DNA of 64,000 nucleotides from Thermoplasmata archaeon (GCA_021819135.1 JAKASE010000001.1:75375-139374); one strand, 5' to 3'. Positions 33,190 to 64,000 are shown, numbered from the stretch's first letter. The notes: generated from the sequence alone by a model not told the origin. Numbers and translations: made by a program.

Positions 33190-33336
33190 CTCCGGGGCGG
33201 AGCCCGGGGCCCCGACGCGGTGCCCGGATCATAGGATTCCCGGGTTTGCTCTGGAGCAGTGGGCTCGGACCTTCGCAGTCGGCTTGCCATCGCCCGCCCA
33301 TGCCCGGTACGAGGTGAAAGGCCTCAGGCTGAGAAA

Positions 33337-35382: not shown

Positions 35383-35455
35383 GCCACTGTAGCTCAGTCG
35401 GCAGAGCGGCTGATTCGTAATCAGCAGGTCGGGGGTTCAAGTCCCTCCAGTGGCT
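35383..35455 (+). tRNA. tRNA-Thr (CGU)
   Basis: 73-nt cloverleaf: acceptor GCCACTG/CAGTGGC, D-arm GCTCAGTCGGCAGAGC, anticodon loop TTCGTAA, T-arm GGGGGTTCAAGTCCCTC; TATA-like CTTATGA ~30 nt upstream. Confidence 0.85.
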
Positions 35456-35499
35456 TTGGTCCAAGGGTTCATATCCGTTGACAGCCCTCCCTCGAAGCG

Positions 35500-42032: not shown

Positions 42033-43171
42033 CCCTTCTCCTCGCGATGCAGGGGTTCCGGGTTCTTGGACTCTTCCTCGGACCATCGCTTCAGGTCCGC
42101 TCGAAGGTCCTCCCGCGTGTACGTCCATCGGAAGGGCCGTGGATGTCGATTCCATCGAGCGAGGAACCCACGGATCCTCGCCTCCGCTTCCTCCCGATTC
42201 CGGAAATCTCTCGGTGTCAGTGCCTTCTTCGTCAGGATCGCCAAGAACAGCTCCTCCTGGTCGACCCAGCTCGCGTGCACCGGGGTGTGCACGGCCTGCG
42301 CTTGGGGGAACGCCCCTTTCAGCCATGGCCCGAAGCTCTTCGGATGATGGGCGCTCCCGTTGTCGATCACCCAGAACACCCGAGAGGCCGTGGCGTAGGG
42401 TTCCTTCTCCATCACCTCAGTGACGAAGGCACGAAACGACTCCGCGGTGTTTCGAGGGGGGAGCCCCCCGAACACATCCCCGTGTCGAACGTCGAGCGCT
42501 CCCTGGAAGCAGAGGGTTCCCTTGCGCGTGTATTCGAACTCCACCTTGCCGCGTTCCTTCGGCCGAGGGGCGCGGGTGGCCACCTTCCGCTGAAGGATCT
42601 GGACCCCGGTCTTCTCATCGGCACAGATCACTTGGTCCTGGGGCCCCAACGGCCGACCGTTCCACTGGCCTTCGTAGAGATCGAGGATCGGACCGGCTCT
42701 TTCGAGGAAGTCCGGAGCCCTCTTGTGGATCCACGTGCGATAGAACCACGGTCGAATCCCATCCTGGTGAAGGACCCGCCACAGGGTGGTCCGGCTGGGA
42801 AGCGGCCGGAGCCGTTCCTTCCGAAGGACGGAATGGATCTCGGAGAGGGAGAAGCGGCTGAGCGGTAGGCCCCGCTCGGCGGGCAACTCGCAGGCGATCG
42901 CCTTGAGGGTCGCCAAGGTGCGGGCCGGGAACTGACGAGGTCGGCCGGAGCGAGGTCGGTCCGCCAAGGCCGCCAGTCGGTCACGGACGAAGCGCTTCCG
43001 CCAAGTCTTGACGGTCTGGAGAGCGCAGCCCAGAGTTCGGGCGATCTCGTGGTTCGAAGTGCCCTCCGCGGCCAGAAGGGCGATCCGCGCACGCAAGACC
43101 TCGCGAAACGGAGCAGAGGTCCGACGAAGGCTGGCCTCGAGCCTTGAGCGCTCGCTTTCCGAGAGCACCAC
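42029..43171 (-). CDS. IS630 family (Tc1/mariner-like) DDE transposase
   Basis: 380 aa; N-terminal HTH, DDE region (ICADEKTG..., VIDNGSAHH...) typical of IS630; GTG start. Confidence 0.85.
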   Translation of the reverse strand: MVLSESERSRLEASLRRTSAPFREVLRARIALLAAEGTSNHEIARTLGCALQTVKTWRKRFVRDRLAALADRPRSGRPRQFPARTLATLKAIACELPAERGLPLSRFSLSEIHSVLRKERLRPLPSRTTLWRVLHQDGIRPWFYRTWIHKRAPDFLERAGPILDLYEGQWNGRPLGPQDQVICADEKTGVQILQRKVATRAPRPKERGKVEFEYTRKGTLCFQGALDVRHGDVFGGLPPRNTAESFRAFVTEVMEKEPYATASRVFWVIDNGSAHHPKSFGPWLKGAFPQAQAVHTPVHASWVDQEELFLAILTKKALTPRDFRNREEAEARIRGFLARWNRHPRPFRWTYTREDLRADLKRWSEEESKNPEPLHREEKG

Positions 43172-47008: not shown

Positions 47009-50000
47009 GTGCGCTGTTCAGGTAGCAAGTCGTCTTTCATTCCCAACCTCTATCTCCAGAACCTCTCCGCCGACCGGCTGTTCACCTGGTACGTTACCCT
47101 GAAGGCGACCTACGACGAGACCGATTACTGGATCATCCACAACGCGTGCACGACCCGGGAGGGTGTGACAAACCTGGGGAACAACGTCGTCCAGGGTCCC
47201 GCGTCGGTCTCGATGAGCGGGGGATCCGAGGACTCGACGACCTTGACCACTTCGGCCCAGGTGATCGAGAAGGGTACCAGCGATGTCGAGCTTCAGTGGA
47301 ATAACTCCATGATGGCGGATGGCCAAGGGGTCATCAGCCCGTCCATGGGCGGTAGTGGCCTCTCCGGGTTCGTCTACCAGGCGTCCTGGAACGACACTCA
47401 CACGTTCAGCAGTGGTGTGGCCTACGAAGCCGCCGTGAACACTTCGAGCTATCCGGGAGGTTGGAACAGCTCCTGGAAGCCGTCGATGTCCGCCGCCGAG
47501 CAGACCTCGTCACCGGTGCAGGCCACGAACTCCGTGTGTCAGTTCGTGTATCAGACCAACACGCTCAGCCTCCATGGACTCGTGGGGGTCGGAGGACCGA
47601 ACGACACCGCGACGGTGACTTGGTGGGCGAACGGCTTCGGGGTGGGCGTGCTCGAATACTCGGAGGTCGGCACGTCGTGGAGCCAGACCGTGACGTCGGT
47701 CGTAACGACCGATTCCAATGGGACTGACAAGTACACGGCGACCGTCCACGGCCTGCCCGGTACCGCGTTCTACTCCCTAACGGCCACGACGACGGTGGCC
47801 GCCGGGGGATGCCTCAGTCTCTCGAACGCGATCTCGTCCACGGCGTTCTTCGGACAAGGGTTCACGCTGACGCCGTTCGCGTACGCCTACGATTCGATCA
47901 CGCAGCAAGGTGGCGGTGAGGGGATCTACGCATACCTGTCGCCCCAGTTGTATACCCTCTACACGCAAAGCACGGTAAGTTCGACCGGAGGCTACCTGGA
48001 CTACGGACCGGCCAACGACGCGGGGCCGAACATCACCATCCCCATCTCGTCGCTATCTTCCATCACCTGTGGAGGGAACTGCTTCCTGGTGAACATCACG
48101 CCTACGAGTCCGAACCTGAACTATGTGGTCCAGGAGACGCTCAACTTCTCATGGGACGGCGGATCGTACTCCATGCACAGTGCTCCGACGACCTTCAACT
48201 ACCTCTGGGACACATCGGGGGATGGCCTGACGGATGCGGAGAAGGTCCGCGGCTGGAACGTGACCTACCAGGACCTTGCGGGCACCTACCACACCCGCCA
48301 CGTCACGGCCGAACCCAGCGCCTTTGCGACCAATGGACTCGTGGGAGACTACGTGGAGAAGGAGTTCGGGCTCGACCCGGGCACGGTCGACACGGCAGGC
48401 AGCCACATGCTCGATACATGGAACCTAACGTTCAATCTCCAGCCGGCAGGCGGGAGTCTACCTACCGGCTCGGACCTCCGAGTCTGGTACGAGAACTCGA
48501 CCTACGAGCCGTTCGCGGCAGGTCTTCAGTATTCCCACGGGCTCTATGAGACGGGCAATCCACCGGCCAGCGAGCGGAACGCGACCAACATCTCCGCCAC
48601 GGGAGGCGTCAACATCGGGGACGGGAGCCCATGGGCATCGACTGCGCTCTTCAGCTACCCCGCGCTCGAGACATTCGTCGGTCTGTCCGGTGTCCAGAAC
48701 GCGGGCTGGCTGCGGGCCGTCGAGGGGAGCTGGCAGGGGATCCCGACCCTCACGGTCGAAGGGAAGCTCTCTTGGGGGGCGGATCCCCTGGCCGCATCCA
48801 CCCCGAACGACGGGGTTTCGGACGGGGCGCGGGTCAACCCGCTCTACGATGTCGGTCTCGAGTTCCATTCCGTCTATGCGAACCTGACCGGGCTCGGGTC
48901 GGGCAACGATGGCAATGGCTACGCGGTCGAGATGGTCGAGGGCTACACCGATGATGGCGGGAACTGGCGATACATCAACAACTACTCCACGCCAGCGGTA
49001 TACGGCAACAGCAGCTCCCACCATGGAGACGTCACCGACTACACCACCACGTTGCCGGTGGGTCAAACCCAGCCGACCCAGACGATCTCGCTCGAGGTGG
49101 CGGAGAACATCACTCCGGGCCAGGGGCCCCAGCCGGCCTATATCAACGGGAGCGGTACCGGAATCTCCGAAACGTACGACCTCGTCCGAGGAGGCAATTT
49201 AGTCGTGAATGTCGTCGGCTGGTCCGGGCACGGCGGCTACTCCACGCTCTACGGGGTGTTCACGGAGGTGCCGATGGGAACCAAGGCGCCGACGTGGCTC
49301 TGGGTCCCCACGGACAACTCGACCGTCAACGGTCTCCCGATCGGCCTCCAGCGATACACCGGCGAGCAGTCGTTCGACCTCGTGGTCGTGAACGTCTCCT
49401 CCTCGGCCCTCTCCTCCGACCCGATCCCGCTCCCGTGGGGCGGGACGACACCGACCGGGATCCCGCTCTCGGCCGGCCTGAACGACTTCCTGGTCCCGCG
49501 GGAGCAGTTCCTCTACTCTCCCTTCGGCCAGGCGATCTTCCTCGGGAAGAGCACGAGCTTCAATGCCTCCCAAGCCCTGCCGTTCAACGGCTCGATCGAG
49601 TGGGGCGACATATCGGGGTTCGGCAGTCCGAACCCGATGGTCGACCTCGGCGCCTACTGGCAGAACCGGGCCATCGCCTCCGGACCGGGGAACATCACCG
49701 GGTATAACGAGACCGGTACCGCCGCGGGCACCACGGATGCCATCTCGGTGATGGTCGGTCCGTCCGCCACCACTGCCAACACCGGCGGCCTCCCCTCGAA
49801 CCCGAGCCTCTACTCGACCGTCGGCGATCCCTCGGCCCTGCAGTCCATCGTCACCCTCAACATCACCAGCCCGGACACGCTGGACCTCCTCCTCGCCGCC
49901 CTGCTCGATAACACCACGGGCGGATCCAACGCGGTGAACGGTACCCTCGAGTCCGTCACCTACCAGATCGGGTTCCTCGGACTGAACCCGACCGTACTCA

Positions 50001-51064
50001 ACGCGATCCCGAACGGGACAGAGCCGAACGACGGGCTCTACGGACAACCGAGCAGCACCTGGCCGCCGAACCCGCCGAGCAGCCTCTGGGGCTCCTTCTG
50101 GAACGCGGTCACGAGCTTTGTGGTCAACCCGCTCGGCACGGTCCTGTCGCTCGTCAACACCGTGTGGGACGCCGCTACGGCCGCGTTCACGTACCTGAAC
50201 CACCTCGCGCACGAAGCGGTCGCGATCGGGGCGGAGGTCGTGGCGCGGACCGCAGCCGCGATCGTGCAGGCGGGGAGGGAGATCGCGAACGCGTTCGAGG
50301 TGTTCTTGAACTGGCTCTACACGCTCGTCAAGGACGCACTTGCGGTGGTTATCGACCCGATACTTAACGCGGCCCAGAGTTTCGACAGCACTCTAGCGAC
50401 TCGGGCCAACGTGACTGTGAGCGACCAAGGCTCACTCGGTTACGTGACCCCCGCTGATGGGCTAACTTGGGCACGGGCATTCGACCCAGTAGCCTACCTT
50501 GGGTTTGCATTCGCAGTCGGTATCACCATCGTAATCGGGATTGTTACAGCCGTCACTCTAGGAGCAGGGTTCGTTGTCGGGGTGATCTTGTCCCTCATTC
50601 CCACGCTCGCGCAAGAGCTAATCCATGGACTGGCGACAGTGACGTCACTCACTTCGAGCGCGGTGACAACTCTCGAAGATAGCTTCTCCAACTCGGTCTC
50701 GCAGACTGACTGGGAAGCTTTGGCAGGTGCCGTATCGATCGGGGCGTCGAGCTTCGACTTCTTCTTTGCGTTGGCGACAGCGGCGATGAAGGGACTCACC
50801 AACACCATCGCAGGTACCCTCGCCCTCTCCATCATCGTTGACCTCGTCGTCTTTGTGGTGAGCATCGTGAACTGGGCGAGTCATCTCGCAGACATCGCCA
50901 TCGCCGCCCTCTTGCTGGCGGGCGCCGGAACGTATGTCGCGTTCAGAGCACTGGGTGCGAGCGCGAGCATTCCGGAATTGAAGACTTACGCCACCGTCTC
51001 CGTCATCTTGGCTGGAGTGGGACTTGCTGCTGCCGGGGCCGATGTCCATCTGGCGGAGTCGTGA
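47009..51064 (+). CDS. giant (1351 aa) N-glycosylation-sequon-rich surface protein with C-terminal multi-TM domain; no recognisable signal peptide
   Basis: >70 N-x-S/T sequons, S/T/G-rich beta-like sequence, 6-8 hydrophobic helices in last 300 aa; GTG start 12 nt after IS1634 end. Confidence 0.6.
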   Translation: MRCSGSKSSFIPNLYLQNLSADRLFTWYVTLKATYDETDYWIIHNACTTREGVTNLGNNVVQGPASVSMSGGSEDSTTLTTSAQVIEKGTSDVELQWNNSMMADGQGVISPSMGGSGLSGFVYQASWNDTHTFSSGVAYEAAVNTSSYPGGWNSSWKPSMSAAEQTSSPVQATNSVCQFVYQTNTLSLHGLVGVGGPNDTATVTWWANGFGVGVLEYSEVGTSWSQTVTSVVTTDSNGTDKYTATVHGLPGTAFYSLTATTTVAAGGCLSLSNAISSTAFFGQGFTLTPFAYAYDSITQQGGGEGIYAYLSPQLYTLYTQSTVSSTGGYLDYGPANDAGPNITIPISSLSSITCGGNCFLVNITPTSPNLNYVVQETLNFSWDGGSYSMHSAPTTFNYLWDTSGDGLTDAEKVRGWNVTYQDLAGTYHTRHVTAEPSAFATNGLVGDYVEKEFGLDPGTVDTAGSHMLDTWNLTFNLQPAGGSLPTGSDLRVWYENSTYEPFAAGLQYSHGLYETGNPPASERNATNISATGGVNIGDGSPWASTALFSYPALETFVGLSGVQNAGWLRAVEGSWQGIPTLTVEGKLSWGADPLAASTPNDGVSDGARVNPLYDVGLEFHSVYANLTGLGSGNDGNGYAVEMVEGYTDDGGNWRYINNYSTPAVYGNSSSHHGDVTDYTTTLPVGQTQPTQTISLEVAENITPGQGPQPAYINGSGTGISETYDLVRGGNLVVNVVGWSGHGGYSTLYGVFTEVPMGTKAPTWLWVPTDNSTVNGLPIGLQRYTGEQSFDLVVVNVSSSALSSDPIPLPWGGTTPTGIPLSAGLNDFLVPREQFLYSPFGQAIFLGKSTSFNASQALPFNGSIEWGDISGFGSPNPMVDLGAYWQNRAIASGPGNITGYNETGTAAGTTDAISVMVGPSATTANTGGLPSNPSLYSTVGDPSALQSIVTLNITSPDTLDLLLAALLDNTTGGSNAVNGTLESVTYQIGFLGLNPTVLNAIPNGTEPNDGLYGQPSSTWPPNPPSSLWGSFWNAVTSFVVNPLGTVLSLVNTVWDAATAAFTYLNHLAHEAVAIGAEVVARTAAAIVQAGREIANAFEVFLNWLYTLVKDALAVVIDPILNAAQSFDSTLATRANVTVSDQGSLGYVTPADGLTWARAFDPVAYLGFAFAVGITIVIGIVTAVTLGAGFVVGVILSLIPTLAQELIHGLATVTSLTSSAVTTLEDSFSNSVSQTDWEALAGAVSIGASSFDFFFALATAAMKGLTNTIAGTLALSIIVDLVVFVVSIVNWASHLADIAIAALLLAGAGTYVAFRALGASASIPELKTYATVSVILAGVGLAAAGADVHLAES

Positions 51065-52920: not shown

Positions 52921-54654
52921 CTCCGTCAGTCCAGCCCTCGAGGACCCGCGTCGAACAGTAACCCCGCCACGCCGATGGCTCCGAGGAGGGACCGCTGTTC
53001 CTTCGTCATCTCCGTCACGAGCCGGCGACGCCAGCCCGTCTTGGCGAGCTCGACCTCGTTCAGCATGATGGTGCGGAACTGGTCCAGGGCCTTCGCTCCC
53101 GTGAGCTCGTAATCGCGCATTCGGACGTGCAGTTCGACCACCCGCTCGAGGAGATAGGCGAGCACGCAGAGGAAGAGGTGGGCTTCGATCCGTCGCTCGA
53201 GGCGGTGGCGGATTGGGCGGACCTCCAGTCCGCTCTTCAGCTCCCGCCATCCCTGTTCGATGATCGAGAGCCCCATGTAGAGACGGGCGACCTCCTCGGG
53301 GGGAAGATCGGTGTCGGTGGTCAGTACCCACCAACCGGCCAGCCTCCGATCGCGTCGACGGCCTTCCTTGAGCTTCGCCGTCAATCCACGGACCGTCGCC
53401 TCGTCCCACTCGATCTCGAACAGGTCGGAGAGACCCTTTGCCGCCAGAGCGGCGTGGGCCTGTCGAAGGATCGTGTGATGGTGCCGAGGCCGCTTCGCCC
53501 AGGCACGGCGAAGCTGGTAGAGGATCGCCTCGCCCTGGGCGATCCTACGCCCGAGGTTCTCGAGCTCGGTCTTCCGTCGCTCCTCGTTCAAGAGGACGAT
53601 GAACCGTCGTCCCTCTCGGTCGATGACCTCACGGACCTGGTTCTGCTCGCTGACGGCCACTGGCGGGAGTTTCTGGGCCTGGAGGATGATCTCCTCCACG
53701 TTCCGATTGACCTCGGCGAGCACGTAGTGGAATCCGTGGGCGTGGAGGTCCGCGAGGACCTCCTCGCTCTTCATTCCCCGGTCGCCGACATAGGTCCCTT
53801 CCTTCAGTCCGAAGAGCCGGGTCAACCGGTCGACCATCCCGATGACCGTCGTGTTGTCGGTGGTGTTACCCGGATAGACCTGGAGGGTGATGGGGAGGCC
53901 CTCGGGCGTGACGACCATGCCCCAGCTGACCTGAGGCCGATCCGCTCGACGGTCTCTCGAGTAGCCGAACTGGGCGAGGGGACCTCCCTCGCCCTCGAAG
54001 TAGCTGGACGTGAGGTCGTGATAGAGCACTCCCGAGGATTGGCTCATTGGGCGCACGACCCGTTCGAACAGCTTCGGTTCGAACCGGTCCTTCGCTCGCC
54101 AGAAGGCATCCATCGCTCGGTAGAACAGGTTGTCGTGCAACCGCTCGGGGTCGAGGTGGAGGAAGAATGGAACGGCGGTGGTGGGCAACCACTCGAGGAG
54201 ACCATACTTCGAGGTCGGATCGTCGAGGCGGTTCAGCACGATCGCCTCGAGGAGCGCCGCGACCCGTCCCTTGTGCGGCACTCCATTAAGCGTTTCGAGG
54301 GCGAGTTGGTGGAGTCCAAGCTTCCGCCAGAGGAAGTGACCGATGGCCACTTTGCCGTAGCTCCACGACTGACGGACACTGAGCTCCGAGAGATCGGCGA
54401 TGTCCCGCGGTCGAGGAGCCAGGGGGAACCGCGGGTCGGTGGCCAGCCATCGACGGAGGTTCTCGATCTGCTCTGGAGTAACCCGACCGAAGTTGACCAG
54501 GACCTCGGTCCGGACCTTGGTTCCTTCCCGGATCCCTCGGGCCAACTGAGCGTAGGTCTGCCCCCGAGGACGAACGACCTTGATGTAGAGGCCTCGGGGC
54601 ACGCAGGGTAGAGAACTGACGAATAGATAGAAGTATCCAACGTATTCGATATGC
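52921..54654 (-). mobile_element. second IS1634-family element (different from the first); possible 11-bp imperfect direct repeat GTTATCCTA(T/C)A
   Basis: Repeat copies at 52910-52920 and 54655-54665; AT-rich 54620-54680 terminus; no clear terminal IRs found. Confidence 0.4.
52926..54602 (-). CDS. IS1634 family DDE transposase (558 aa)
   Basis: C-terminal LYMGLSIIEQGWRELKSGLEVRPIRH signature; family-typical length; GTG start. Confidence 0.85.
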   Translation of the reverse strand: MPRGLYIKVVRPRGQTYAQLARGIREGTKVRTEVLVNFGRVTPEQIENLRRWLATDPRFPLAPRPRDIADLSELSVRQSWSYGKVAIGHFLWRKLGLHQLALETLNGVPHKGRVAALLEAIVLNRLDDPTSKYGLLEWLPTTAVPFFLHLDPERLHDNLFYRAMDAFWRAKDRFEPKLFERVVRPMSQSSGVLYHDLTSSYFEGEGGPLAQFGYSRDRRADRPQVSWGMVVTPEGLPITLQVYPGNTTDNTTVIGMVDRLTRLFGLKEGTYVGDRGMKSEEVLADLHAHGFHYVLAEVNRNVEEIILQAQKLPPVAVSEQNQVREVIDREGRRFIVLLNEERRKTELENLGRRIAQGEAILYQLRRAWAKRPRHHHTILRQAHAALAAKGLSDLFEIEWDEATVRGLTAKLKEGRRRDRRLAGWWVLTTDTDLPPEEVARLYMGLSIIEQGWRELKSGLEVRPIRHRLERRIEAHLFLCVLAYLLERVVELHVRMRDYELTGAKALDQFRTIMLNEVELAKTGWRRRLVTEMTKEQRSLLGAIGVAGLLFDAGPRGLD

Positions 54655-56245: not shown

Positions 56246-56632
56246 TTACCTTCGCTGCGGGTTCTTGGCAAGGTGGGCGTGGACCAGCGTCCCGTCGTCC
56301 TTGCGATAGGTCTCGACCCGATGCTCGGTCCCACGGTCTCGGCGCACGTCCTCTTCCCCGCGGTCCTCGACCTCCCATCGGCGGAGCCAGTCCAGATCGT
56401 CACCAGCGGTCCGGTGCAGGCCGGGGTTGTGCTCGCGCCCCGCTACGTTCTGCATGAACAGAAGGCGGTCGACCGTCGTCTTCCAACCGTCCTCCCGCAC
56501 GGACCGCTCGAGCGCACGGTGCCGCGCCTCGGCGCTCTCGTGTTCCTTCCAACCCAGTCGCTCCAAGGCACCGCGATGGAGCTCGACGTCCCTCGCCCAC
56601 TTCCTTTCGCTGCTTTCAGCCATACTGTTCAC
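56246..56632 (-). CDS. hypothetical cytoplasmic protein coupled to PrsW-like protease (first ATG at 56623)
   Basis: GTG 56632 abuts PrsW stop; charged 125-aa protein, no family recognised. Confidence 0.4.
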   Translation of the reverse strand: MNSMAESSERKWARDVELHRGALERLGWKEHESAEARHRALERSVREDGWKTTVDRLLFMQNVAGREHNPGLHRTAGDDLDWLRRWEVEDRGEEDVRRDRGTEHRVETYRKDDGTLVHAHLAKNPQRR

Positions 56633-57295
56633 CTATCCCAGGCTTACTCTCCCCGTCCAGGCGTGCAGCCAGGTCGCGTTGTCCAGATCGTCTCGCACGA
56701 CCGGACTGCGCCGGAGCAGGAGCATGATCCCGAGGACAGCCAGGCCCGCGGCGGCCAGCAACAGCAGCCCGGCCAGCGGGTCCACGAGGACATAAACCAG
56801 GGTCGCGAAGTTCCACGACATGTGGAGGGCCAGCCCGGCCGGGAAGCCCCACGGCCTGCCCCGCCAGGTCAGCGTGGTCAGGGTCGTGGCCGTCGAGTGC
56901 AGCAGGGGGTCGGTGGCCGCCCGGATCGCGATGAGCAACGCCAGCTCCCCAAGTGGGCCGCCCCAGGCCGACCAGAAGTAGAGGGCATTCTCGGTCGCAG
57001 CGAAGCCGATCCCGACGCCGGCGGCGGACGCGAAGTTCGCCCCCAGGGAGCCGCTGGCGAGGAACTTCAGGACCTCCTCGGTCAGTGGCCCGATGAGCAC
57101 CAGGGTCACGGTGGCCGCGATCAACGGGGAGACCGCGTCCTCGGCCAGCAGTTCGATGAAGAGGGCGGCGATCGCGACGGCCGTCGCCCCGAGAGCGATC
57201 CCCCAGTAGTTCGGCCGCAGCCACGCGACGAACGGCGCGACCAGGACGTACGCCGTCAAGAAGGCGTAAACCCAAGGCGTCAACTCCGAGAGCAT
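56633..57295 (-). CDS. PrsW-family intramembrane metalloprotease
   Basis: EExxK (LTEEVLKF), FxxxEN (FAATENALY), HxxxN (LHMSWN) motifs in polytopic membrane protein; ATG 57295. Confidence 0.7.
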   Translation of the reverse strand: MLSELTPWVYAFLTAYVLVAPFVAWLRPNYWGIALGATAVAIAALFIELLAEDAVSPLIAATVTLVLIGPLTEEVLKFLASGSLGANFASAAGVGIGFAATENALYFWSAWGGPLGELALLIAIRAATDPLLHSTATTLTTLTWRGRPWGFPAGLALHMSWNFATLVYVLVDPLAGLLLLAAAGLAVLGIMLLLRRSPVVRDDLDNATWLHAWTGRVSLG

Positions 57296-57449
57296 CACGG
57301 ACTCCCCACCAGGGGGCGTGGGCCCACCCGGATTCCGTGCGAGAACGGCCCCAGACCGTGCGTCGGGGCCGCTTTCGGGGCAGTGGATGGGCACCTACTA
57401 CCGCGATACAGTCCCACTTGGGTGGGGAATGGGTCAGGCGATGGTCCGG

Positions 57450-57809
57450 TCATGCCGTCGACCCGGGGTCGACCCCGGCCCCTTCCCCCTCGCGCGCATG
57501 TAGTGCTCGCGCGCCGGAAGCGTCAAGCGTCAAGCGCTCGGCGGTTTGGAGCCTCTTTCGGATGGATGCGATCAGGTTGGTCGTCACCCCGCGCTTGGCC
57601 TGGATCTGCCTGTAGGTCAGGCCTGCGAGCACGTCGGATTCGACCGCCTCTTGAACGGCGAGCTCCGCGGCGTCCGTCTCGGTCCGAAGCTCTCGAAGCC
57701 GCTCCCGGGCCGGTTTCCCGCGGGCCAAATACGCGAGCGTAGCCTTTGCCACGGCCTCGACGTCCCCCGCAAACTCCGGTCCCGTGAATTGCGCTTCCAT
57801 GTCCTGCAC
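57450..57809 (-). CDS. small HTH protein (sigma-70 region-4-like / LuxR-type helix-turn-helix)
   Basis: LAGLTYRQIQAKRGVTTNLIASIRKRLQ resembles LT.REIA..LG.S..TV; GTG start 57809 or ATG 57800. Confidence 0.5.
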   Translation of the reverse strand: MQDMEAQFTGPEFAGDVEAVAKATLAYLARGKPARERLRELRTETDAAELAVQEAVESDVLAGLTYRQIQAKRGVTTNLIASIRKRLQTAERLTLDASGARALHAREGEGAGVDPGSTA

Positions 57810-57917
57810 GTCGACCTCGATCTTGGACCCCGAAGTCCGAGCGTGAGGTACGGTAGGTCGGTCTCGGGAAGGGGGCCCAGGGCCCCGCGGCGATTGCCTT
57901 TTGGAGCCATCAGGTCT

Positions 57918-59600
57918 GAGTCTCCGACGGGGGAGTGATCCGCGTCTCCTCAGGCGCGCGGGAGGGTACCGCCCGGAGTTGCTCGTTGCTGGTAGCGACG
58001 AGCGAGGAGCCTCCCCTCGGATCGCAATCTGCTTCTTCTCCGACGGGGGAGGTACCGCCCTGAGGAACGAACAGCCGGCAGCGCCGGTTCACGCGACTCT
58101 GGACGTAAGATGATGTGCCGTTACGAAGCCAGACACGTTCCCGTGCGCGCGGAGCTCGCGTCCCAATGGCGGTGGCGTGAGCGTGTACGCCGATTCCTTC
58201 GCGCTCATGCTCGCGCCGTTCACGGACCCCGAACCCTAGCTGTGTCGCGCACGTGACGACTGGGGGAACCACGGTTACCGGACACCCGGACACTGGGTCT
58301 CTTCCGGTCGAGCGACCTCTCCTTGGGTGCGCCTTCGGGGCCGGGATCTCACCCTGCACCATGCACCCTTACACCGGGTCCCTTTCCCCCGAGCGAGCTC
58401 TCCGCGCTTGCGCGTTCGAGCCGGCACATCTTTCGGGATGCTGTCGGATCGATAGACGCTACCCGTTACTTGCTGCTGGCGCGCGCGTACCACACACACG
58501 CGAGGGAGGAACGGGTAGCTCGTCCGGACGAGCGGGACGAGAAGGGCGAGACGAGTCATTCCCTCGCGAGCACTTGCTCACACCGAGCACCGCTTGAGGT
58601 GTCGGCTCAGGTGGTCGAGGGGGAGAACGCTCCCTCGACCGTGGGGCACGGACACGGTCTGAACCCGACGGGGACCCTTGTCAGTTGACGGTTGAGGGTT
58701 CCGGCGCGCACGAACCACGCGCGGGTGAGGGGTACACGGTGGGCACTCGTCCGGGCGAGCCGGTGGGGACGCATGAGCGTCCCTTTGGAGGGGAGCGGGC
58801 CGATCGCGAATCTTGCCCCTTGCCCTGGGTCGGCTTCCTCCGAGCGAGCTCTCCACGCGACGCGCGTTCCGAGTTGACGTCCGCCGGACGCCAGGAGGAG
58901 GCGCGACGTTCGCAGTCACCGCAAGCGCGGGGAGGAGGGAGCGAACCATGCCCCCGCAAGCCCCTCGGAGCCCATGGATCGATGGTCAAAGTTCAACGTC
59001 GAGCGCGCGAGCACTACGCGCACGGGAGAAGAAGACCCGGGCGAGCCGGACGAGGACGAGTCACTCGGCCGGACGGGCAGCGAGTCTGATGCTGGCGTCC
59101 ACAAGGTCACAAGGGGGTCTCCATCCCCCGAGCGAGCTCTCCGCGCGACGCGAGTCCGGAGCGCCCTCGTCGGCCTCTTGGTTCGATGGGTGCCGCACGT
59201 CGGGAGGCGGCCCAATACGAGCGAGTACCCCGACTACGCGAGGAAGGCTCCTCCGAAAGACGTGAGAACATCCCTTGAGGACGAGTGGTTCCCAATTCCC
59301 ACATCCCGAGCCCCGGCGCGCGAGCACCACGCGCGGGGAAGGAGAAGGCGGATGGCACCGGGTCGGACGGGTTACTCGTCCGGACGAGTCGGCCGCTCGG
59401 ACGGGCTCACCGATCCCGCGCATCGTTTGACGTGGCGGGAGAGGTTGTCCCGGCGGACCAGGGTCCTGCATCCCCGGGGGCAGAGGATGCGATCCGAGCC
59501 GGACCAGTTCCCCAAGTGCTTGACGTTTGACGCTTCCGGAGCGTGCGAACTACGCGCGGGTGAGGGAGTAGGGGGGTTGACCGTTGACGGTTCCGGTATT
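57918..59600. repeat. GC-rich non-coding repeat cluster: 3 copies of CCGAGCGAGCTCTCC(G/A)CGCG..CGCG.GTTCGAG, 2 copies of ~50-nt TTGACG(G/T)TTGA(G/C)G(G/C)TTCCGG..GCG(C/T)GCGAAC(C/T)ACGCGCGGGTGAGG, several ACGCGCGGG/ACGCGCACGGG variants, and perfect 14-16-nt palindromes CTCGTCCGGACGAG
   Basis: Motif A at 58386-58420, 58837-58873, 59125-59160 (+ inverted partial 58143-58160); motif B at 58685-58733 and 59520-59570; palindromes 58518-58533 and 59384-59399; direct repeats TCTCCGACGGGGGAG at 57921-57935 and 58037-58051. Confidence 0.6.
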
Positions 59601-60091
59601 CGTTGCGACTTAGAGACCGACGTGCCGGAACCATCCTCGAAGTGGTGGCCGGTTCCCGGTTCCCCGGGCGGTACCTCCCCGCGCGCGGGGGACGAGACCG
59701 GGGTGGTATCGCTCCCGGACGAGCCGGACGAGTGGGACGAGCGGGACGAGCGCGGTTCGACGGGTGGCACGTTCGGCTCCTCGTGCGGATAGAGTTCGAG
59801 TGGGCCGGACCTTGGACTTGGACCCTCCGGCTCCGTGAACGCCTCCCCGCCCGGGACTTCGAGATAGACCGGACCGACGGACGACACGTGCCCCGGACTC
59901 TCTCGGTGGGTCAGGATGACCTCGGACCACAGAGGACCCCCGGTTTCCCAACCGGGATCGCGACGATGATCCTGGCCACAAAGGGCACATCGGGAGGCGG
60001 GAGCTCGGCCGATCACCTGGTCTCGGCAGTTGGAACAGACGAGTGGATCGCTGCCGCGGACACGCGGTCCGTCGTGGGTACAGGCCGTCAC
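59372..60091 (-). CDS. possible zinc-finger protein: N-terminal zinc ribbon (CSNC...CALCG), S/P-rich low-complexity middle, C-terminal C2HC finger (CPRGC...H...C)
   Basis: 239-aa ORF with ATG; mixed codon usage; 3' half overlaps repeat region so may be partly spurious. Confidence 0.3.
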   Translation of the reverse strand: MTACTHDGPRVRGSDPLVCSNCRDQVIGRAPASRCALCGQDHRRDPGWETGGPLWSEVILTHRESPGHVSSVGPVYLEVPGGEAFTEPEGPSPRSGPLELYPHEEPNVPPVEPRSSRSSHSSGSSGSDTTPVSSPARGEVPPGEPGTGHHFEDGSGTSVSKSQRIPEPSTVNPPTPSPARSSHAPEASNVKHLGNWSGSDRILCPRGCRTLVRRDNLSRHVKRCAGSVSPSERPTRPDE

Positions 60092-60275
60092 GGCTCAACT
60101 CGAACGGCGCAATCCCGGTGTTCGGACGATTGGGGCTCTCCACTCGGGGGGAATGGTGGTACCACTTTGCCGAAGCGCCGACGGGCGGCCTCTACCGGGT
60201 TGCTCCGGATAGGCCGTTTGTTCCGACTGCGGATCCTGCGGTAATCCACAGCCCGAACGAAGCCCGGCGACCCGT

Positions 60276-60737
60276 TCATGCGGTCTCACCCCCGAATGAA
60301 CGCGTTACCGGCCCTCGGGCGGTCCCGGACGGGTCGGAAGGGGTCTCGGGGGCGGTACGTGTCCGGACGCTGGAGTCCGGGCCGCTTCTCGCGTGATTTC
60401 GGCGCCGACGCAGGAGCCGCGCCTTCGCCTCCTCGCTCATGGGCCGCCCGGGGCGGTACTGCGGGTTCTCGAAGGCGAAGTAGGTGTCGAACTCGGGCTC
60501 GGCATGGCGGACCAGGTACGCCTCGTCCCAGGACTTGGTCCGACAGGAGAAGAACCACCCGGTACCGCCATCGGAGCAACCCGCCCCGCGGTGATCGATG
60601 AACTCGTACCGACGGACCCCGTGCCGGCCGGTCTCATGTGCCAGGGTCGCCGCCGGGATGTCCTCGGTCCGGCGGCTCTCCTTTCGGTCGGCTTTTCCGC
60701 TCTCGCCCGGGCGCGGGTGGTAGGCGAGGGCGGTCAT
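60276..60737 (-). CDS. hypothetical protein (153 aa), coupled to upstream ORF
   Basis: ATG 60737 overlaps upstream stop (ATGA); conserved-looking core WFFSCRTKSWDEAYLVRHAEPEFDTYFAFE. Confidence 0.4.
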   Translation of the reverse strand: MTALAYHPRPGESGKADRKESRRTEDIPAATLAHETGRHGVRRYEFIDHRGAGCSDGGTGWFFSCRTKSWDEAYLVRHAEPEFDTYFAFENPQYRPGRPMSEEAKARLLRRRRNHARSGPDSSVRTRTAPETPSDPSGTARGPVTRSFGGETA

Positions 60738-61075
60738 GGTTCCGCCTCCTTGAGCCGGACCCAATCGCTCCCCCGGACGACCGAGCCCTCGCCGTAGAGC
60801 CGACCGAGGACGCTGTCGATCTCGGCGGGCGAATACGCCATCGATACCAGCCGGTCCCGGAGGGTCTGTTCTCCGTAGCCCGCTGAGTTGCCGGCGAGTT
60901 CGCGTTGGAGAGCTGAGACCCCCTCCGCAATCCGTCGGTCGTGTTCGGAGTCTCCCGCTCTCGGCTCGGGCGGATCCGGGCCGTGGCCTGGGGTCGGTCC
61001 GGAGATGTGCCGCCACCTACCGCGCTCGTCAGAGGATGGGGTGTCGGCGGCATGTGGGTCTGACAACTGGCCCAT
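60734..61075 (-). CDS. hypothetical protein (113 aa)
   Basis: ATG 61075; lies between intron 5' end and downstream coupled ORF. Confidence 0.4.
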   Translation of the reverse strand: MGQLSDPHAADTPSSDERGRWRHISGPTPGHGPDPPEPRAGDSEHDRRIAEGVSALQRELAGNSAGYGEQTLRDRLVSMAYSPAEIDSVLGRLYGEGSVVRGSDWVRLKEAEP

Positions 61076-61171
61076 CGCGCGTACACCCGCCTGCGCGGAC
61101 GCGGTAGGCGGTACACCGTTCGTGGGAGGTTGTGAGAGCGACGTGTCCACGTCCCCCTTTTTCCCGTCAGA

Positions 61172-63036
61172 GTGCGCCGAGCAACCATGGAGACCAGCAA
61201 CGACCCAAGCTACACGGTAAGTCGTAGCGGAAGGCAGGGTGTCGGGGGAAACCCCGAATCTGAAGGGCCTGACCCGCAAGCTCGTGGGCCGAAGGAAGAC
61301 GAACCGACAACCAGCCTCCTCGCGGAAGGACGACCCTGTTCTGACGGGGGGAAGTCGTGTGTGGCGTACGGCGAGGAGGTGTGTGAGGTCGGCACGCGGG
61401 TATCGGGCCTCCATGGTGACCTCGGGATGCCCTCGGTCCTCCCGGCCGTGGCAAGGAAGGAAGCCTCGGGGTTGGGACCCCGATGGCGAATGGCCCGAGC
61501 TACGGGAAGGGTAGACCTCGTGGCAACACGAGGACGAAGGGACCAGGGTGGCAGAGGGAGCCGTAGTAGTCGTGACGGCCGGGGAAACCCGGAACGAGCG
61601 AAGGGCTCCCGGTCGGCCAAGGGTGGCGCGGAAAAGACCGGCGGAGTGACTTCCCGAGGGCGGGCACGGAATGGTGGGACGACCCATCCCATCCTCTACG
61701 GAGAGCCGCCAAGGGAGGGGAAGGGCGCGGAGCGCCCTCCGAGTCGGTCGAGTGCCATCGGGGAGAACCACCCATGAAGCCGCTTCCGAAGTGGACGGGG
61801 CAGAAGCATTCCTCGCTGATGCCCCTGCTGTTTCGGAAGAAGACCCTCCAGGCGGCATGGGAGCAGGTGAGGAGGAATGGAGGAGCCCCGGGGATAGACG
61901 GCGAGACGGTGGAGGAGTTCGGAGAACATGCGAAGGAACGGCTGTGGGAACTGTCGGAGGAACTCCGACTGCACACGTGGCAGCCGAAGCCGTTGCGTCG
62001 AGTCTGGATACCGAAGCCGGACGGCCGGAAGCGAGGACTGGCCATCCCGAGCGTGGAGGACCGGGTGGTGCACGCCGCCATCGCCATCGTGCTCTATCCG
62101 ATGTTCGAGGACGTGTTCGGGGAGGCGTGCTTCGCGTATGTCCCGGGGAAGAACGCCCAGCAAGCAGTAGCGCGAGTAGCGGAGAAGGGACGAGCGGGGA
62201 AGGAATGGGTCGTGGAGACCGATGTGGCCTCGTTCTTCGACACGGTGGATCGGCGGCGACTGGTGGGGAAGCTCGCGGCGAGGATCGCGGACGGGAGCTT
62301 CCTTCGACTGGTGGGCCAAGTCGTTCGGTCCGGCGTGCTGGGAGAGCGGACCACAGAGGAGAGTGCCGAGGGAATCCCGCAAGGGAGTCCCCTGTCGCCC
62401 CTCCTGGCGAACATCTATCTCGCGGAGTTTGACCGAGAGGTAGGGAAGCGCTGGGAGTTGACGCGGTATGCCGACGACCTCGTGGTGCAGTGCGCCACGA
62501 GGGAGGAAGCGGAAGCGGCCCAGGAGGAGGTGGAGTCCGCCCTCGGGAACGAAGGGCTGACCATGAAGCCGGAAAAGACGCGTGTGGTGTCGTTGCGAGA
62601 GGGGGTGGACTTTCTGGGGTATCGCATCACCCTCGGGGGCGTCTGGCCCTCGGAGAAGTCGGTGAAGCGGCTTCAGGAGAAGGTACGCTCCCTGACGCTG
62701 CGGCACGAGACGCGTCCGCTGAAGGAAGTGGTGCAACGGGTGATGCCCGTGATTCGCGGGTGGACGAACTACTTCTCGATGACCGAGCCATCTCGGCTCT
62801 GGAACCTGGGGATGTGGATTCTGGACCGAATTCGCCTGTGCGCCGTGAAGCACTGGTGGCGAGTGAAGTGGCAGAAAGAAGCGTCCTCCGCACGGCTGTA
62901 CGGGCTGGGATTGAGGCTACCGTATGTCCTCCTCAAGTGGGGCGCCCGATGAGGCCGAGAAAGCCGTGTGCGCTAAACGCGCCCGCACGGTTTGGGGTGG
63001 CGGACGGCGGGGAGTAACCTCCGCCTCCGACCCTAT
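61172..63036 (+). mobile_element. group II intron (~1.86 kb): 5' GUGCG, domain I-IV with IEP ORF, domain V (62961-62993), domain VI with bulged A, 3' end ~63036
   Basis: GTGCG at 61172-61176; RT/maturase ORF in domain IV; DV AAGCCGUGUGCGC-UAAA-CGCGCCCGCACGGUUU with AGC triad and 2-nt bulge; DVI GGCGGGGAG-UA-A-CCUCCGCC. Confidence 0.75.
61774..62952 (+). CDS. group II intron-encoded reverse transcriptase/maturase (RT + X domains, no endonuclease domain)
   Basis: RT blocks: RVWIPKPDGRKRGLAIP (RT1-2), FAYVPGKNAQQAV, SFFDTVDRRRL, IPQGSPLSPLLANIYL (RT5), YADDLVVQC (RT5 YADD); maturase X tail. Confidence 0.9.
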   Translation: MKPLPKWTGQKHSSLMPLLFRKKTLQAAWEQVRRNGGAPGIDGETVEEFGEHAKERLWELSEELRLHTWQPKPLRRVWIPKPDGRKRGLAIPSVEDRVVHAAIAIVLYPMFEDVFGEACFAYVPGKNAQQAVARVAEKGRAGKEWVVETDVASFFDTVDRRRLVGKLAARIADGSFLRLVGQVVRSGVLGERTTEESAEGIPQGSPLSPLLANIYLAEFDREVGKRWELTRYADDLVVQCATREEAEAAQEEVESALGNEGLTMKPEKTRVVSLREGVDFLGYRITLGGVWPSEKSVKRLQEKVRSLTLRHETRPLKEVVQRVMPVIRGWTNYFSMTEPSRLWNLGMWILDRIRLCAVKHWWRVKWQKEASSARLYGLGLRLPYVLLKWGAR

Positions 63037-64000
63037 AGAAGGGGGTGGCGGCACATCTCCGGGAGGTTTCGGCGGATCCCCCTTCCTTCCCGCGCCTTCG
63101 TGGGTCGGCTCGGGCGGTGGGGTGACCCGAGCCTTGACCCCTCGAAGGAACGTTCTCTTCTCCTTCCCGCGGCGCTCGGAGCTGACGCGGGGGTGAGCCC
63201 GGCGGATCGCGGCCGCGACCTCCCGGGGGCTGGGCGGCTCCTCGACGTTTTCCTCCTCCGCCACCTCGTCCACTCGCTTCACCACGTCGTCCAGGGCGAC
63301 TTCCCCCTCGGGATCGTCTACGAGTTCGTGCTCAGCGACCCACAGAGCCGGGTCGGACGACCGCACCCACTTGTCCGCGATGTCGACCGGGAGCGCGGTG
63401 AAGCGCCCCTGTTTCAGCAACCGACGCGAGGCGTCGAAGAACGTGCGGAAGATCCCCGCCCTCTCCTCGAGGAGCTCGGCGGCGAAATCGGGGCGCTCGT
63501 CCTTCGGTTCCACCTTGACTTCCCAGGCGACGAGAAGGATCCGGACCCAGAACGCCGGGGTGGCCCCGGGGACCCTCGGAAGGCGGTTGCAGGAGAAGAC
63601 GAGCTTCGCCGACGGGCGGAACTTGAACGGGTGCTGATACTTCCGCTGAGCCGAGATCTCGTCCCGACCGCCCGTGAGCTCCTGGACCAGACCGACGTTG
63701 CGGATCAACTTCCACGGAATGTCGCTGCGGACGTTCGCGATTTTGTCGGCGATCTCCGCGGCGAGGAACTTGTCGTCCGCGAGACCCGAGAGGTCGATCG
63801 CGGCGATGTTGTCGGTTCCGTAGACCCCGTTGAGGACGGCCGTGAAGGTCGACTTGCCCGTGGTCGATGGCCCCCACAGGACCAGCATCTTCCGCAGCGA
63901 GTTCCAGGGCCAGAGCAGATAGCCGGAGAACTCGAGGATCGCATCTCTCGTCTCGTGGTTCGGGAGGGCCTGCTCGAGGAACTTCTCGAATCGGGGGCAC
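62917..64000 (-). CDS. phage/plasmid P4-family primase C-terminal / D5-like SF3 helicase, 5' partial (continues beyond window end); C-terminal tail read through antisense intron
   Basis: Frame open to position 64000: ...FSGYLLWPWNSLRKMLVLWGPSTTGKSTF (Walker A) ...ELTGGRDEISAQRKYQHPFKFRPSAKLVFSCNRLP; residues after ~aa 284 map inside intron DV/DVI and RT ORF. Confidence 0.7.
   Translation of the reverse strand, partial: CPRFEKFLEQALPNHETRDAILEFSGYLLWPWNSLRKMLVLWGPSTTGKSTFTAVLNGVYGTDNIAAIDLSGLADDKFLAAEIADKIANVRSDIPWKLIRNVGLVQELTGGRDEISAQRKYQHPFKFRPSAKLVFSCNRLPRVPGATPAFWVRILLVAWEVKVEPKDERPDFAAELLEERAGIFRTFFDASRRLLKQGRFTALPVDIADKWVRSSDPALWVAEHELVDDPEGEVALDDVVKRVDEVAEEENVEEPPSPREVAAAIRRAHPRVSSERRGKEKRTFLRGVKARVTPPPEPTHEGAGRKGDPPKPPGDVPPPPSIGSEAEVTPRRPPPQTVRARLAHTAFSASSGAPLEEDIR

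Follow-up and report, generated by a model that had tools for sequence, protein, structure and literature searches.

A group II intron on the antisense strand splits the replicase gene of a probable cryptic integrated element in a Thermoplasmata archaeon

What is the DNA at positions 60276-64000 of the Thermoplasmata archaeon sequence analysed here (the window, 64,000 nt), where a primase-helicase gene runs off the end? An earlier note saw a second integrated plasmid or virus-like element there, with the rest of it outside the window. In our analysis the likely explanation is that a cryptic plasmid-like integrated element has its replication module here, that this module is split by an intron, and that it probably forms the distal end of a single island at a tRNA-Thr gene.

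The P4/D5-family assignment of the primase-helicase was confirmed. The helicase core of the minus-strand ORF at 62917-63888, which is open to 64000, matches DUF5906 in Pfam (PF19263, E=1.6e-13), and the P-loop GPSTTGKST is readable in its translation. The public contig L001, nearly identical to the window (2 mismatches over 12,227 nt), extends the interrupted ORF to an 847-aa product with Prim-Pol (PF09250), D5_N (PF08706) and DUF5906 domains. This product scores 136.9 bits against the P4-family profile TIGR01613 (cut-off 108.7), and the gene matches the PHROG DNA primase at E=4e-62. The Prim-Pol domain, encoded beyond the window, is of the AEP type, as in D5 and pRN1, and not as in P4 alpha. 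The gene consists of the following parts:

About 65460 (GTG, the gene caller's choice) or 65541 (ATG), minus strand: start of the primase-helicase gene, outside the window
63037 to 64000, minus strand: in-window part of the gene, with the SF3/D5-type helicase core and Walker A motif GPSTTGKST
62917 to 63036, minus strand: read-through tail of the interrupted ORF, 40 antisense-intron codons and then the first stop
60734 to 61171, minus strand: displaced 3' end of the gene, 146 codons, with a Pro/Ser-rich linker and a predicted C-terminal winged-helix domain (about 60737-60970)

An antisense intron interrupts the 953-codon frame after codon 807 and splits off the linker and the winged-helix domain. 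The earlier note had overlooked this intron, and positions 62917-63036 of the called primase ORF are intron read-through. The intron and its functional parts are:

61172 to 63036, plus strand, antisense to the primase: complete group II intron of 1,865 nt, 5' GTGCG ... CCCTAT 3'
61165 to 61171, plus strand: IBS1 (CGTCAGA), the final 7 nt of the 5' exon in intron sense, pairing with EBS1
61242 to 61413, plus strand: intron domain I-IV segment (RF02001)
61340 to 61346, plus strand: EBS1 loop in intron domain I (TCTGACG), from covariation with 5' exons
61774 to 62952, plus strand: intact intron-encoded reverse transcriptase/maturase of 392 aa, bearing a YADD motif and lacking an endonuclease domain
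62959 to 63036, plus strand: intron domains V and VI (RF00029), with an AGC triad in V and an A 7 nt from the 3' end

Against Rfam Intron_gpII (RF00029) the intron scores 41.4 bits (gathering 40), with model positions 1-77 of 77 covered, and against group-II-D1D4-3 (RF02001) 33.1 bits (gathering 32, E=5e-4). Domains V and VI fold as a bulged V hairpin and a VI stem (-45.1 kcal/mol); domain V opens with GAGCC, and its AGC triad was read from the sequence. The reverse transcriptase contains RVT_1 (E=2e-36) and GIIM (E=7e-14) domains and reaches 332 bits with TIGR04416, group_II_RT_mat (cut-off 300). Its relatives are 55-93% identical, some of them named Thermoplasmata archaeon, and the nearest solved structures are endonuclease-less (En-less) IIC reverse transcriptases (E ~1e-57). 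Group IIC introns insert directly behind a terminator-like stem-loop, pair through a very short EBS1 and have CGC as the domain V triad. While the reverse transcriptase is nearest to those of IIC introns, the 7-nt EBS1, the AGC triad and the inconsistent upstream hairpin would not be expected of that class; a hairpin and T-run precede the intron site here, and the relatives show no consistent hairpin upstream.

Complementarity between EBS1 and IBS1 is 7/7, extended 9/9. EBS1 covaries with its own 5' exon in three of four related introns (for example, at the aligned positions, CGCACAG with exon end CTGTGCG in L010, and TAATCCT with exon end AGGATTA in L013), and in L007 the pairing is 5/6. It is by this EBS1-IBS1 pairing of 7-9 bp that the intron's site was chosen. 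Both the ribozyme and the reverse transcriptase appear intact, and the match between EBS and IBS speaks for a genuine retro-insertion. The related introns, 73-76% identical across their full length, adjoin a serine recombinase and IS4 transposases, the latter 50-54% identical to the IS4 transposase at 52926-54602 in the window. The intron-in-primase arrangement itself is found on 5 public contigs.

Removing 61172-63036 yields one continuous 953-codon primase frame. The interrupted and intron-deleted translations part exactly at ...PPPPS, and the tail at 62917-63036 is not common to primase homologues. The closest uninterrupted homologue, P0002 (878 aa, 73% identity), which has a different domain in place of PrimPol at its N-terminus, reads PPTPS, then SDEKKGG, through the junction. 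At the DNA level, L002 and L003 provide an exact empty site, in which the window's flanks are joined base for base with no target duplication. The C-termini of P0002 and P0005 align with the segment at 60734-61171, P0002 reaching 59% in the winged-helix part. Since deletion of the intron restores one frame, and the uninterrupted homologue and the exact empty site agree, these sequence comparisons identify 60734-61171 as the primase gene's own 3' end and not a separate gene. Its C-terminal domain is predicted to fold as a winged helix: the AF2 model (pLDDT 79.7) has an H-H-H-beta-beta topology, and the closest folds are the winged-helix domains of Rpa2 and MCM (TM 0.73).

This result changes the reading of the two coupled small ORFs of unknown function that had been described after the primase. 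Two minus-strand ORFs are present and share an ATGA overlap, but a 1,865-nt group II intron intervenes, and the pair was misread because the first ORF is primase sequence. The description holds for the second:

60276 to 60737, minus strand: 153-aa ORF whose ATG overlaps the primase stop (ATGA at 60734-60737), also called as a gene in L001

In the profile search of the ORFs at 60276-61075 that had been proposed, where the other ORF proved to be the winged-helix C-terminus of the primase, the 153-aa ORF had no match in Pfam, PHROGs, NCBIfam or PADLOC. Its AF2 model is poor (pLDDT 41.5), and its termini alone resemble the ORF downstream of the L002 primase.

We propose that the replicase would be one four-part protein, in which an AEP PrimPol domain and D5_N precede an SF3 helicase and, at the C-terminus, a winged helix. 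Judged from pRN1 ORF904, vaccinia D5 and P4 alpha, such a protein would find the origin of the element, melt the DNA there and prime replication of the element itself. An endonuclease-less mobile group II intron then probably reverse-spliced into the antisense strand of the gene. Because the intron lies on the opposite strand, splicing cannot rescue the primase mRNA. The truncated product would keep the primase and helicase domains and lose the linker and winged helix, and the orphaned 3' segment, with the ATGA-coupled 153-aa ORF, would be left without upstream translation. Loss of replicase function is read from MAG assemblies, as is the integrase frameshift described below; the shortened replicase might have kept its function, or expression of the 3' fragment might be separate.

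The same strand continues into the zinc-finger ORF and the repeat-rich region of the earlier note, both of which are real:

59372 to 60091, minus strand: zinc-finger protein of 239 aa, with a CxxC...CxxC ribbon at the N-terminus, a C2HC finger (CPRGC..LSRHVKRC) at the C-terminus and a Ser/Pro linker between them
58381 to 58997, minus strand: decayed zinc-finger gene copies, the core of the repeat-rich region, with 58584-58997 and 58381-58620 in different frames
57450 to 57809, minus strand: 119-aa ORF whose 3' end bears an inverted copy of the repeat's hairpin motif

With 19 representative homologues (11 at E<1e-10, 2 at E<1e-30) and a shared C-terminal signature, WSGxDRxPCPRGCGxxVRRDNLSRHLKRC, the zinc-finger ORF is, by its conservation, a real member of a small family. 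The 119-aa ORF has a codon-position GC typical of local genes and no Pfam or PHROG match; the inverted repeat (57500-57541 and 59512-59553) is 83% complementary. The repeats at ~57.5-59.8 kb are local and non-random, as the 20-nt hairpin motif has 4 matches against 0.06 expected and a 15-mer, CCGAGCGAGCTCTCC, occurs three times exactly. At the DNA level they are 60-64% identical over 250-276 nt. Members of the zinc-finger family match the decayed copies in tblastn at E 1e-4 to 2e-9, and a degenerate finger, ...VPHGRGSVLPLDHLSRHLKRC, is seen in their translation. The repeat-rich region thus appears to consist largely of decayed tandem paralogues of the adjacent zinc-finger gene.

One could speculate that this region (57.5-59.8 kb) is instead a replication origin or partition site, with motifs that bind the winged-helix domain of the replicase or the zinc-finger protein. 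The candidate motifs, a 14-bp palindrome (CTCGTCCGGACGAG), the hairpin (GCGCGCGAGCACYACGCGCG) and the 15-mer, are confined to the repeat region and over-represented there. This region follows the replicase gene at a distance of ~1 kb, and three copies of the 15-mer are identical although their flanks are ~60% identical. Moreover, P4 alpha acts on iterons via its C-terminal DNA-binding domain. However, the palindrome and the hairpin correspond to conserved peptide motifs of the zinc-finger family (TRPDE and PSRVxGSRAP), also present in homologues from other metagenomes, the region gives the shifted-frame protein-level matches expected of pseudogene copies, and the homologous primase elements lack the motifs. 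We therefore regard an origin here as doubtful and favour decayed gene copies. A separate observation is that the exact conservation of CCGAGCGAGCTCTCC within ~60%-identical repeats is unaccounted for by simple gene decay.

Does the primase-helicase belong to a mobile element at all? Among 8,000 word-sharing candidates scored from 5.8 billion clusters, 43 primase homologues were found at E<=1e-5, with relatives named Thermoplasmata archaeon. These sparse homologues adjoin resolvases, methylases and defence genes, in neighbourhoods unrelated to one another, and travel with serine recombinases, not tyrosine integrases; no gene besides the primase is common to the homologous elements and the window. 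In a relative colinear with window positions 20173-29112, the whole region is absent. It is very improbable that the primase-helicase is a resident chromosomal gene of the lineage in which an intron merely landed. A complete, demonstrably mobile copy of the element was not found and the closest homologues sit on short contigs, as a resident gene would allow; yet the region is missing at the syntenic position in the colinear relative, the homologue neighbourhoods are mutually unrelated, P4-family and PHROG primase signatures are present, and the gene lies between IS elements, beside the integrase-tRNA junction. These data support the primase-helicase being a mobile-element replication protein in this archaeon and not a conserved chromosomal gene.

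The boundaries of the element were sought on both sides. The features that define the island are:

35383 to 35455, plus strand: tRNA-Thr(CGU), found by Rfam (71 bits) and ARAGORN
35443 to 35456, plus strand: candidate attL core, the tRNA-Thr 3' end (CCCTCCAGTGGCTT), with a direct 14-nt copy at 66733-66746
35500 to 36739, plus strand: tyrosine integrase in two reading frames, split near 35697 (Phage_integrase, E=1e-21)
42029 to 43171 (IS630-like) and 45275 to 46996: the other two IS elements in the island (DDE_3 and HTH domains; weak DDE_Tnp_1 match)
52926 to 54602, minus strand: IS4-family transposase (DDE_Tnp_1)

Following the sequence beyond 64000, as the earlier note had suggested, recovered the full primase and the 14-nt copy of the tRNA-Thr 3' end. 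The copy, at extended coordinates 66733-66746 (L001 14960-14973), lies ~2.7 kb past the window end, ~1.2 kb beyond the primase start, and follows at 65 nt the last of the ORFs upstream of the primase operon. Together, the tRNA-Thr gene and this copy bracket ~31.3 kb. The pair is the sole att-like one and encloses both the primase and the integrase (35.5 kb); the window would therefore hold most of the element, whereas the earlier note placed the rest of it outside. The candidate right boundary depends on one 14-nt exact repeat (18/20), a length reached in 1/300 shuffles with an analytic chance of ~0.025, 14-mer matches being common in whole-region comparisons. On the left, frame 1 of the integrase aligns with residues 1-93 of its 413-aa relative P0164, and frame 2 with residues 66-413. 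L103 matches the window over the left flank, running from housekeeping genes through tRNA-Thr and an integrase remnant to unrelated genes; neither the right-hand flank of the island nor an empty site for the whole island was recovered in any related genome.

Of the 9 kb past the window, ~1.5 kb belongs to the primase; the rest holds two tiny ORFs and a 172-aa ORF, and then genes for a BNR-repeat protein, a peptidase S58 and a P-type ATPase. Neither a capsid gene nor any integrase or resolvase gene was found there. Across the ORFs at 35.5-66.7 kb no capsid, portal or terminase match was obtained with Pfam, PHROGs or NCBIfam, profiles that divergent archaeal capsids could escape. These searches gave no support for a virus-like nature, and the proposal of a second element stands in part: the integrated element is supported, while a separate second one is not, as neither a second integrase nor a second att pair was found.

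An independent second integrated plasmid or provirus would start at ~60.3 kb or somewhat to the left, extend past the window, carry its own recombination and structural genes outside it, and keep the primase and small ORFs intact. We consider this unlikely, even though GC is higher around the primase (0.66-0.69) than beside the integrase (0.58-0.61), the IS elements at 42-54.6 kb could mark the seam of two acquisitions, and homologous primases accompany serine recombinases rather than tyrosine integrases. The 9 kb without an integrase, resolvase or capsid gene speak against it, as do the lack of an att-like repeat pair flanking the primase module alone and the identity of the first small ORF as primase sequence. 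GC is lower in the island than in the flanking chromosome and remains low (0.60-0.66) past the repeat at 66733-66746. The contrast between the integrase and primase parts would fit a mosaic of two acquisitions or an accreted origin. In the single-island reading that we prefer, the ~31.3-kb island would have integrated at tRNA-Thr in a high-GC Thermoplasmata archaeon via the tyrosine integrase at 35.5 kb, and is probably now immobilised and eroding, with its integrase frameshifted, three IS elements inside and its replicase split.

Known systems offer parallels. Archaeal cryptic integrated elements typically have PrimPol-S3H replication proteins and short att repeats, as in the primpol-S3H fusions of thaumarchaeal iMGEs (PMC6563490), and AEP families occur on MGEs (PMC5862659). 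The order of AEP PrimPol, D5_N and SF3 helicase with Walker A is that of pRN1 ORF904-type, vaccinia D5 and P4-family primases, although similarity to solved structures is very low at the sequence level (7ola, E=2e-6). As in other PrimPol-SF3 systems, there is a C-terminal winged helix and the gene lies on an integrase-bearing island beside a tRNA gene; unlike them, the primase is split by an antisense group II intron. Similarly, as in archaeal islands made by tRNA-targeting tyrosine integrases, the integrase is immediately 3' of the tRNA, a candidate short repeat of the tRNA 3' end is present, GC is below that of the flanking chromosome, relatives differ in cargo and IS elements have built up. 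In contrast to those islands, the integrase here is frameshifted, the right end is marked by a candidate repeat of 14 nt, and no excised or empty form was observed.

Bacterial En-less mobile group II introns, such as RmInt1, act as retroelements (PMC3035460), and Ll.LtrB is a group II intron in the conjugative relaxase gene of a mobile element (PMC6003770). The intron described here shares with bacterial mobile group II introns a GUGYG...AY ribozyme, domains V and VI, and a reverse transcriptase-maturase ORF in domain IV. Like the En-less introns, it has no endonuclease domain, is targeted by EBS1-IBS1 pairing, leaves no target duplication and resides in mobile DNA. However, its host is a Thermoplasmata archaeon, and, unlike Ll.LtrB, it is antisense to the interrupted ORF, where splicing cannot rescue the gene. 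Archaeal group II introns are reportedly known from Methanosarcina, and are said to have been described in 2003 both by Dai and Zimmerly and by Rest and Mindell. An archaeal group II intron that disrupts a replicase is the sole distinctive feature of an otherwise ordinary cryptic integrated element.

We show that the replicase gene at the end of the window was entered on its antisense strand by an En-less group II intron, through EBS1-IBS1-guided reverse splicing, and that this insertion parts the helicase from its winged-helix tail. The intron, complete and on the plus strand, separates the primase ORF from what the earlier note described as two coupled small ORFs after it, and had been overlooked. 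The locus contains the following features:

59372-60091, minus strand: zinc-finger ORF
60276-60737, minus strand: 153-aa ORF, in ATGA overlap with the primase stop
60734-61171, minus strand: orphaned primase 3' segment, a Pro/Ser-rich linker plus a ~70-residue domain
61242-61413, plus strand: ribozyme D1-D4-3 (RF02001, 33.1 bits against a gathering score of 32)
61774-62952, plus strand: reverse transcriptase (RT) ORF, 392 aa (RVT_1, E=2e-36; GIIM, E=7e-14)
62959-63036, plus strand: ribozyme domains V/VI (RF00029, 41.4 bits against a gathering score of 40)
62917-63888, minus strand, open to 64000: helicase-core ORF, D5/P4-type SF3 (DUF5906, E=1.6e-13)

The intron starts with GTGCG at 61172 and ends with CCCTAT at 63036. 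Its RT clears the cut-off of the equivalog model TIGR04416 (332 bits; cut-off 300), and an Rfam E-value scan of 57300-63200 found no other structured RNA. When 61172-63036 is removed in silico, the primase frame joins that of the first small ORF into 953 codons, with the stop at 60734. The closest uninterrupted homologue, P0002 (878 aa, 73% identity), reads KPPGDVPPTPSSDEKKGG across the intron junction, and its C-terminal domain beyond the junction aligns with window 60737-60970; the same tail is present in the homologue P0005. Moreover, the two contigs encoding P0002 (L002 and L003) provide the empty site, in which the window flanks are joined base for base (CCCCTTCT followed directly by TCTGACG), without duplication. 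The predicted plus-strand ligated-exon junction is CCCGTCAGA joined to AGAAGGGGG. Because the antisense intron splits the replicase gene, gene callers and the earlier note broke one gene into separate ORFs, namely an 847-aa 'primase' and a second ORF (317 aa, or small) that is spurious. Since the intron lies on the plus strand and the primase on the minus strand, the primase transcript cannot lose it by splicing, and the last 40 residues of the 847-aa protein are therefore antisense intron sequence (62917-63036). The ATGA coupling of the two small ORFs is real, but they do not directly succeed the primase: the intron lies between, and the first of them is itself primase sequence.

The gene runs beyond the window, and we extended the reading by 8.9 kb using L001 (GCA_027377435.1, contig DAIFDS010000079.1), which was retrieved by exact-protein look-up of the adjoining RT gene and is identical to the window at 12,225/12,227 overlapping bases (window coordinate = L001 + 51,773). 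The 847-aa product called on this contig carries Prim-Pol, D5_N and DUF5906 domains, reaches 136.9 bits with TIGR01613 (cut-off 108.7; 'phage/plasmid primase, P4 family') and matches PHROG DNA-primase families (E=4e-62), in agreement with the P4/D5-family primase-helicase originally proposed. Its homologues are named Thermoplasmata archaeon, so that the host is an archaeon, in line with the earlier note. They are few in number, and their neighbourhoods, which include resolvases, methylases and defence genes, are unrelated; the refuting case named in the note, a conserved chromosomal gene, is thus not borne out. Tblastx comparison with homologous elements (L002, L004, L005, L105 and L102) revealed no shared gene content beyond the primase, and viral contigs gave a single 30%-identity primase fragment and nothing else. 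In P0002 (L002 1822-4458), the D5_N, helicase and WH parts are 73% identical and a different domain replaces PrimPol at the N-terminus, evidence of domain swapping among these replicases. PrimPol-S3H replication proteins are known from plasmids of archaea and from their cryptic integrated elements (PMC6563490, PMC5862659).

The ~70-residue domain of the displaced 3' end is modelled by AlphaFold as three helices and a beta-hairpin (pLDDT 79.7). Foldseek places it closest to winged-helix domains (archaeal Rpa2, MCM8 and MCM4, and Rpc34), with a TM of 0.73 and a probability of 1.0 for the top match, although E-values are weak (0.06 and above). The 153-aa ORF has no match in Pfam, PHROGs, NCBIfam or PADLOC, and its structure model (pLDDT 41.5) was unusable. 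Its resemblance to the 200-aa ORF downstream of the L002 primase (4628-5230) is confined to the first ~12 and the last ~30 residues, as if the frame had been conserved and its middle exchanged.

How the intron found its site can be read from the intron loop at 61340-61346 (UCUGACG), which pairs perfectly with the last 7 nt of the 5' exon, or 9 nt when extended. In related introns (73-76% nucleotide identity), the same loop is complementary to each one's own, differing 5' exon: CGCACAG to CTGTGCG in the L010 intron and TAATCCT to AGGATTA in the L013 intron, with pairing at 5/6 positions in the L007 intron. Such loop-exon pairing, of EBS1 with IBS1, is the mark of a genuine retro-insertion. The relatives have IS4-family transposase genes no more than ~100 nt away, on either strand, and also occupy the 3' end of a gene for a serine recombinase. 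These neighbourhoods fit the retroelement behaviour of bacterial group II introns (PMC3035460) and the habit of group II introns of lodging in other mobile elements (PMC6003770). The IS transposase at 52926-54602 of the window is 50-54% identical to transposases within ~100 nt of related introns (L007, L013), a hint that these introns frequently insert at the termini of this group of IS elements.

The signs of the intron's structural class are mixed. A terminator-like hairpin (GACGTGTCCACGTC) with a T-run at 61140-61162 (plus strand), just upstream of IBS1, resembles class C intron targets; in contrast, the relatives have no consistent hairpin, and IIC-type hairpin targeting was dropped because of this inconsistency. 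Among solved structures, the intron RT is nearest to IIC RTs. A 7-nt EBS1, an AGC triad and the absence of a consistent upstream hairpin in the relatives are out of line with class IIC. Group II introns are rare in archaea and, to our knowledge, have classically been reported there in Methanosarcina only. RT relatives from Thermoplasmata MAGs already carry group II intron RT labels in public annotation, and the literature on Thermoplasmata group II introns holds only a passing mention of one for Ferroplasma type II (bioRxiv 10.1101/538918). It is tempting to speculate, although we consider it rather doubtful, that the intron stands for a group II lineage not yet described and active at present in Thermoplasmata of soil and mine drainage, which has an unusually long EBS1 and colonises mobile elements (IS4-family ends, a serine recombinase gene, the primase) on either strand. 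Such a parasite of parasites could switch off the replicase and help to fix the island in the chromosome.

The zinc-finger ORF proposed in the earlier note is real, an exhaustive HMMER search giving 19 representative homologues (11 at E<1e-10). The family combines an N-terminal CxxC...CxxC ribbon with a conserved C-terminal C2HC finger, WSGxDRxPCPRGCGxxVRRDNLSRHLKRC. In P0296, a metagenomic homologue of 1,869 aa, the Ser/Pro-rich linker module of the zinc-finger protein occurs 12 times, so that it behaves as a reusable repeat in the family. The neighbouring repeat region is made up of degenerate units that share 60-64% identity over 250-276 nt. Zinc-finger family tblastn matches fall within it in other minus-strand frames (58584-58997 and 58381-58620, E 1e-4 to 2e-9), its translation shows a decayed finger (VPHGRGSVLPLDHLSRHLKRC), and its DNA motifs map to zinc-finger peptide motifs (CTCGTCCGGACGAG to TRPDE, the GC hairpin to PSRVxGSRAP). 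The simplest reading is that the repeats would be decayed tandem paralogues of the zinc-finger gene. However, simple pseudogene decay does not explain the 15-mer CCGAGCGAGCTCTCC, present in three exact copies (58389-58403, 58840-58854 and 59128-59142) in surroundings only ~60% identical, and absent from the rest of the window and from 107 comparison loci. We therefore keep an origin, operator or iteron reading as a minor rival, against which stands the match of the repeat motifs to the peptide motifs of the family. A CRISPR or tandem array was rejected, as Tandem Repeats Finder gave only 9-nt x 4.

The replicase belongs to a candidate integrated island beginning at a tRNA gene:

35383-35455: tRNA-Thr(CGU), with a GC fall at its junction with the integrase
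35500-36739: tyrosine integrase, adjoining the tRNA-Thr (Phage_integrase, E=1e-21)
42029-43171, 45275-46996 and 52926-54602: IS transposase genes, one IS630-like and two IS4-like

GC is ~70% up to 35.4 kb and 58-69% beyond. The tRNA region ends in a 14-nt sequence (CCCTCCAGTGGCTT) that is repeated directly at extended coordinate 66733-66746 (18/20 when extended), 65 nt past the final ORF lying upstream of the primase operon; in 300 dinucleotide shuffles, the 45-nt tRNA 3' region gave a match of that length once. This short repeat (14 nt) would form the right boundary, and GC is still low beyond it. Between the two copies lie 31.3 kb that carry, besides the integrase and the primase, an unannotated plus-strand ORF block, three IS elements, the zinc-finger cluster, a PrsW protease and small nuclease-like ORFs. 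The integrase occupies two reading frames, with the break near 35697, its relatives being a single 413-aa protein. Window 20173-29112, with its UvrC, proteasome, FolD and Lon genes, is colinear with a related genome (L103/L030). That genome lacks 29113-35382, and shares the tRNA and an 80%-identical, truncated integrase remnant, followed by unrelated genes. Since 29113-35382 is missing from this otherwise colinear genome, the tRNA is flanked by variable DNA on both sides; these 6.3 kb just upstream of it include ORFs for a DUF5305 protein and an HTH_45 protein. No att repeat of at least 11 nt was found within 11 kb downstream in L103, and 87 Thermoplasmata tRNA-Thr loci gave no match to the right flank, save one related integrase (L030) and weak BNR paralogues.

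Within the island, the plus-strand ORFs 43441-45171 (576 aa) and 47009-51064 (1,351 aa) have good coding signal and no match in Pfam, PHROGs, PADLOC or NCBIfam; the PADLOC matches on the island ORFs were all sub-threshold. At 56246-57394 (minus strand), an unexpected cargo pair is formed by a DUF5771-like ORF and, immediately after it, a PrsW-family intramembrane protease.

Integration itself is supported by the tRNA-Thr/integrase junction, the GC drop and the repeat pair. The distinct second, plasmid- or virus-like element that had been placed at the window end is not: no second integrase or resolvase was found, the primase module alone is bounded by no att pair (only chance-level 13-17-mers), the 9 kb beyond position 64000 contain no recombinase or capsid gene, and no virion gene was found. 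Because the island's two halves are unlike in GC, we could speculate that it may have grown by accretion of two elements at the tRNA-Thr hotspot. By analogy with PrimPol-S3H proteins (PMC6563490, PMC5862659), the replicase would normally start replication of the excised element, while the intron insertion, the integrase frameshift and the IS load would have left the island immobile and decaying.

All components of the locus belong to known kinds, and no new kind of system is present. The main value of our work is a correction, as one replicase gene had been read as separate ORFs. It also provides a clean, base-exact case of an archaeal group II intron outside Methanosarcinales, with an empty site and covarying EBS1-IBS1 pairs, and shows that in these uncultured Thermoplasmata of soil the mobile elements are in turn being eroded, by IS elements and by retro-elements.
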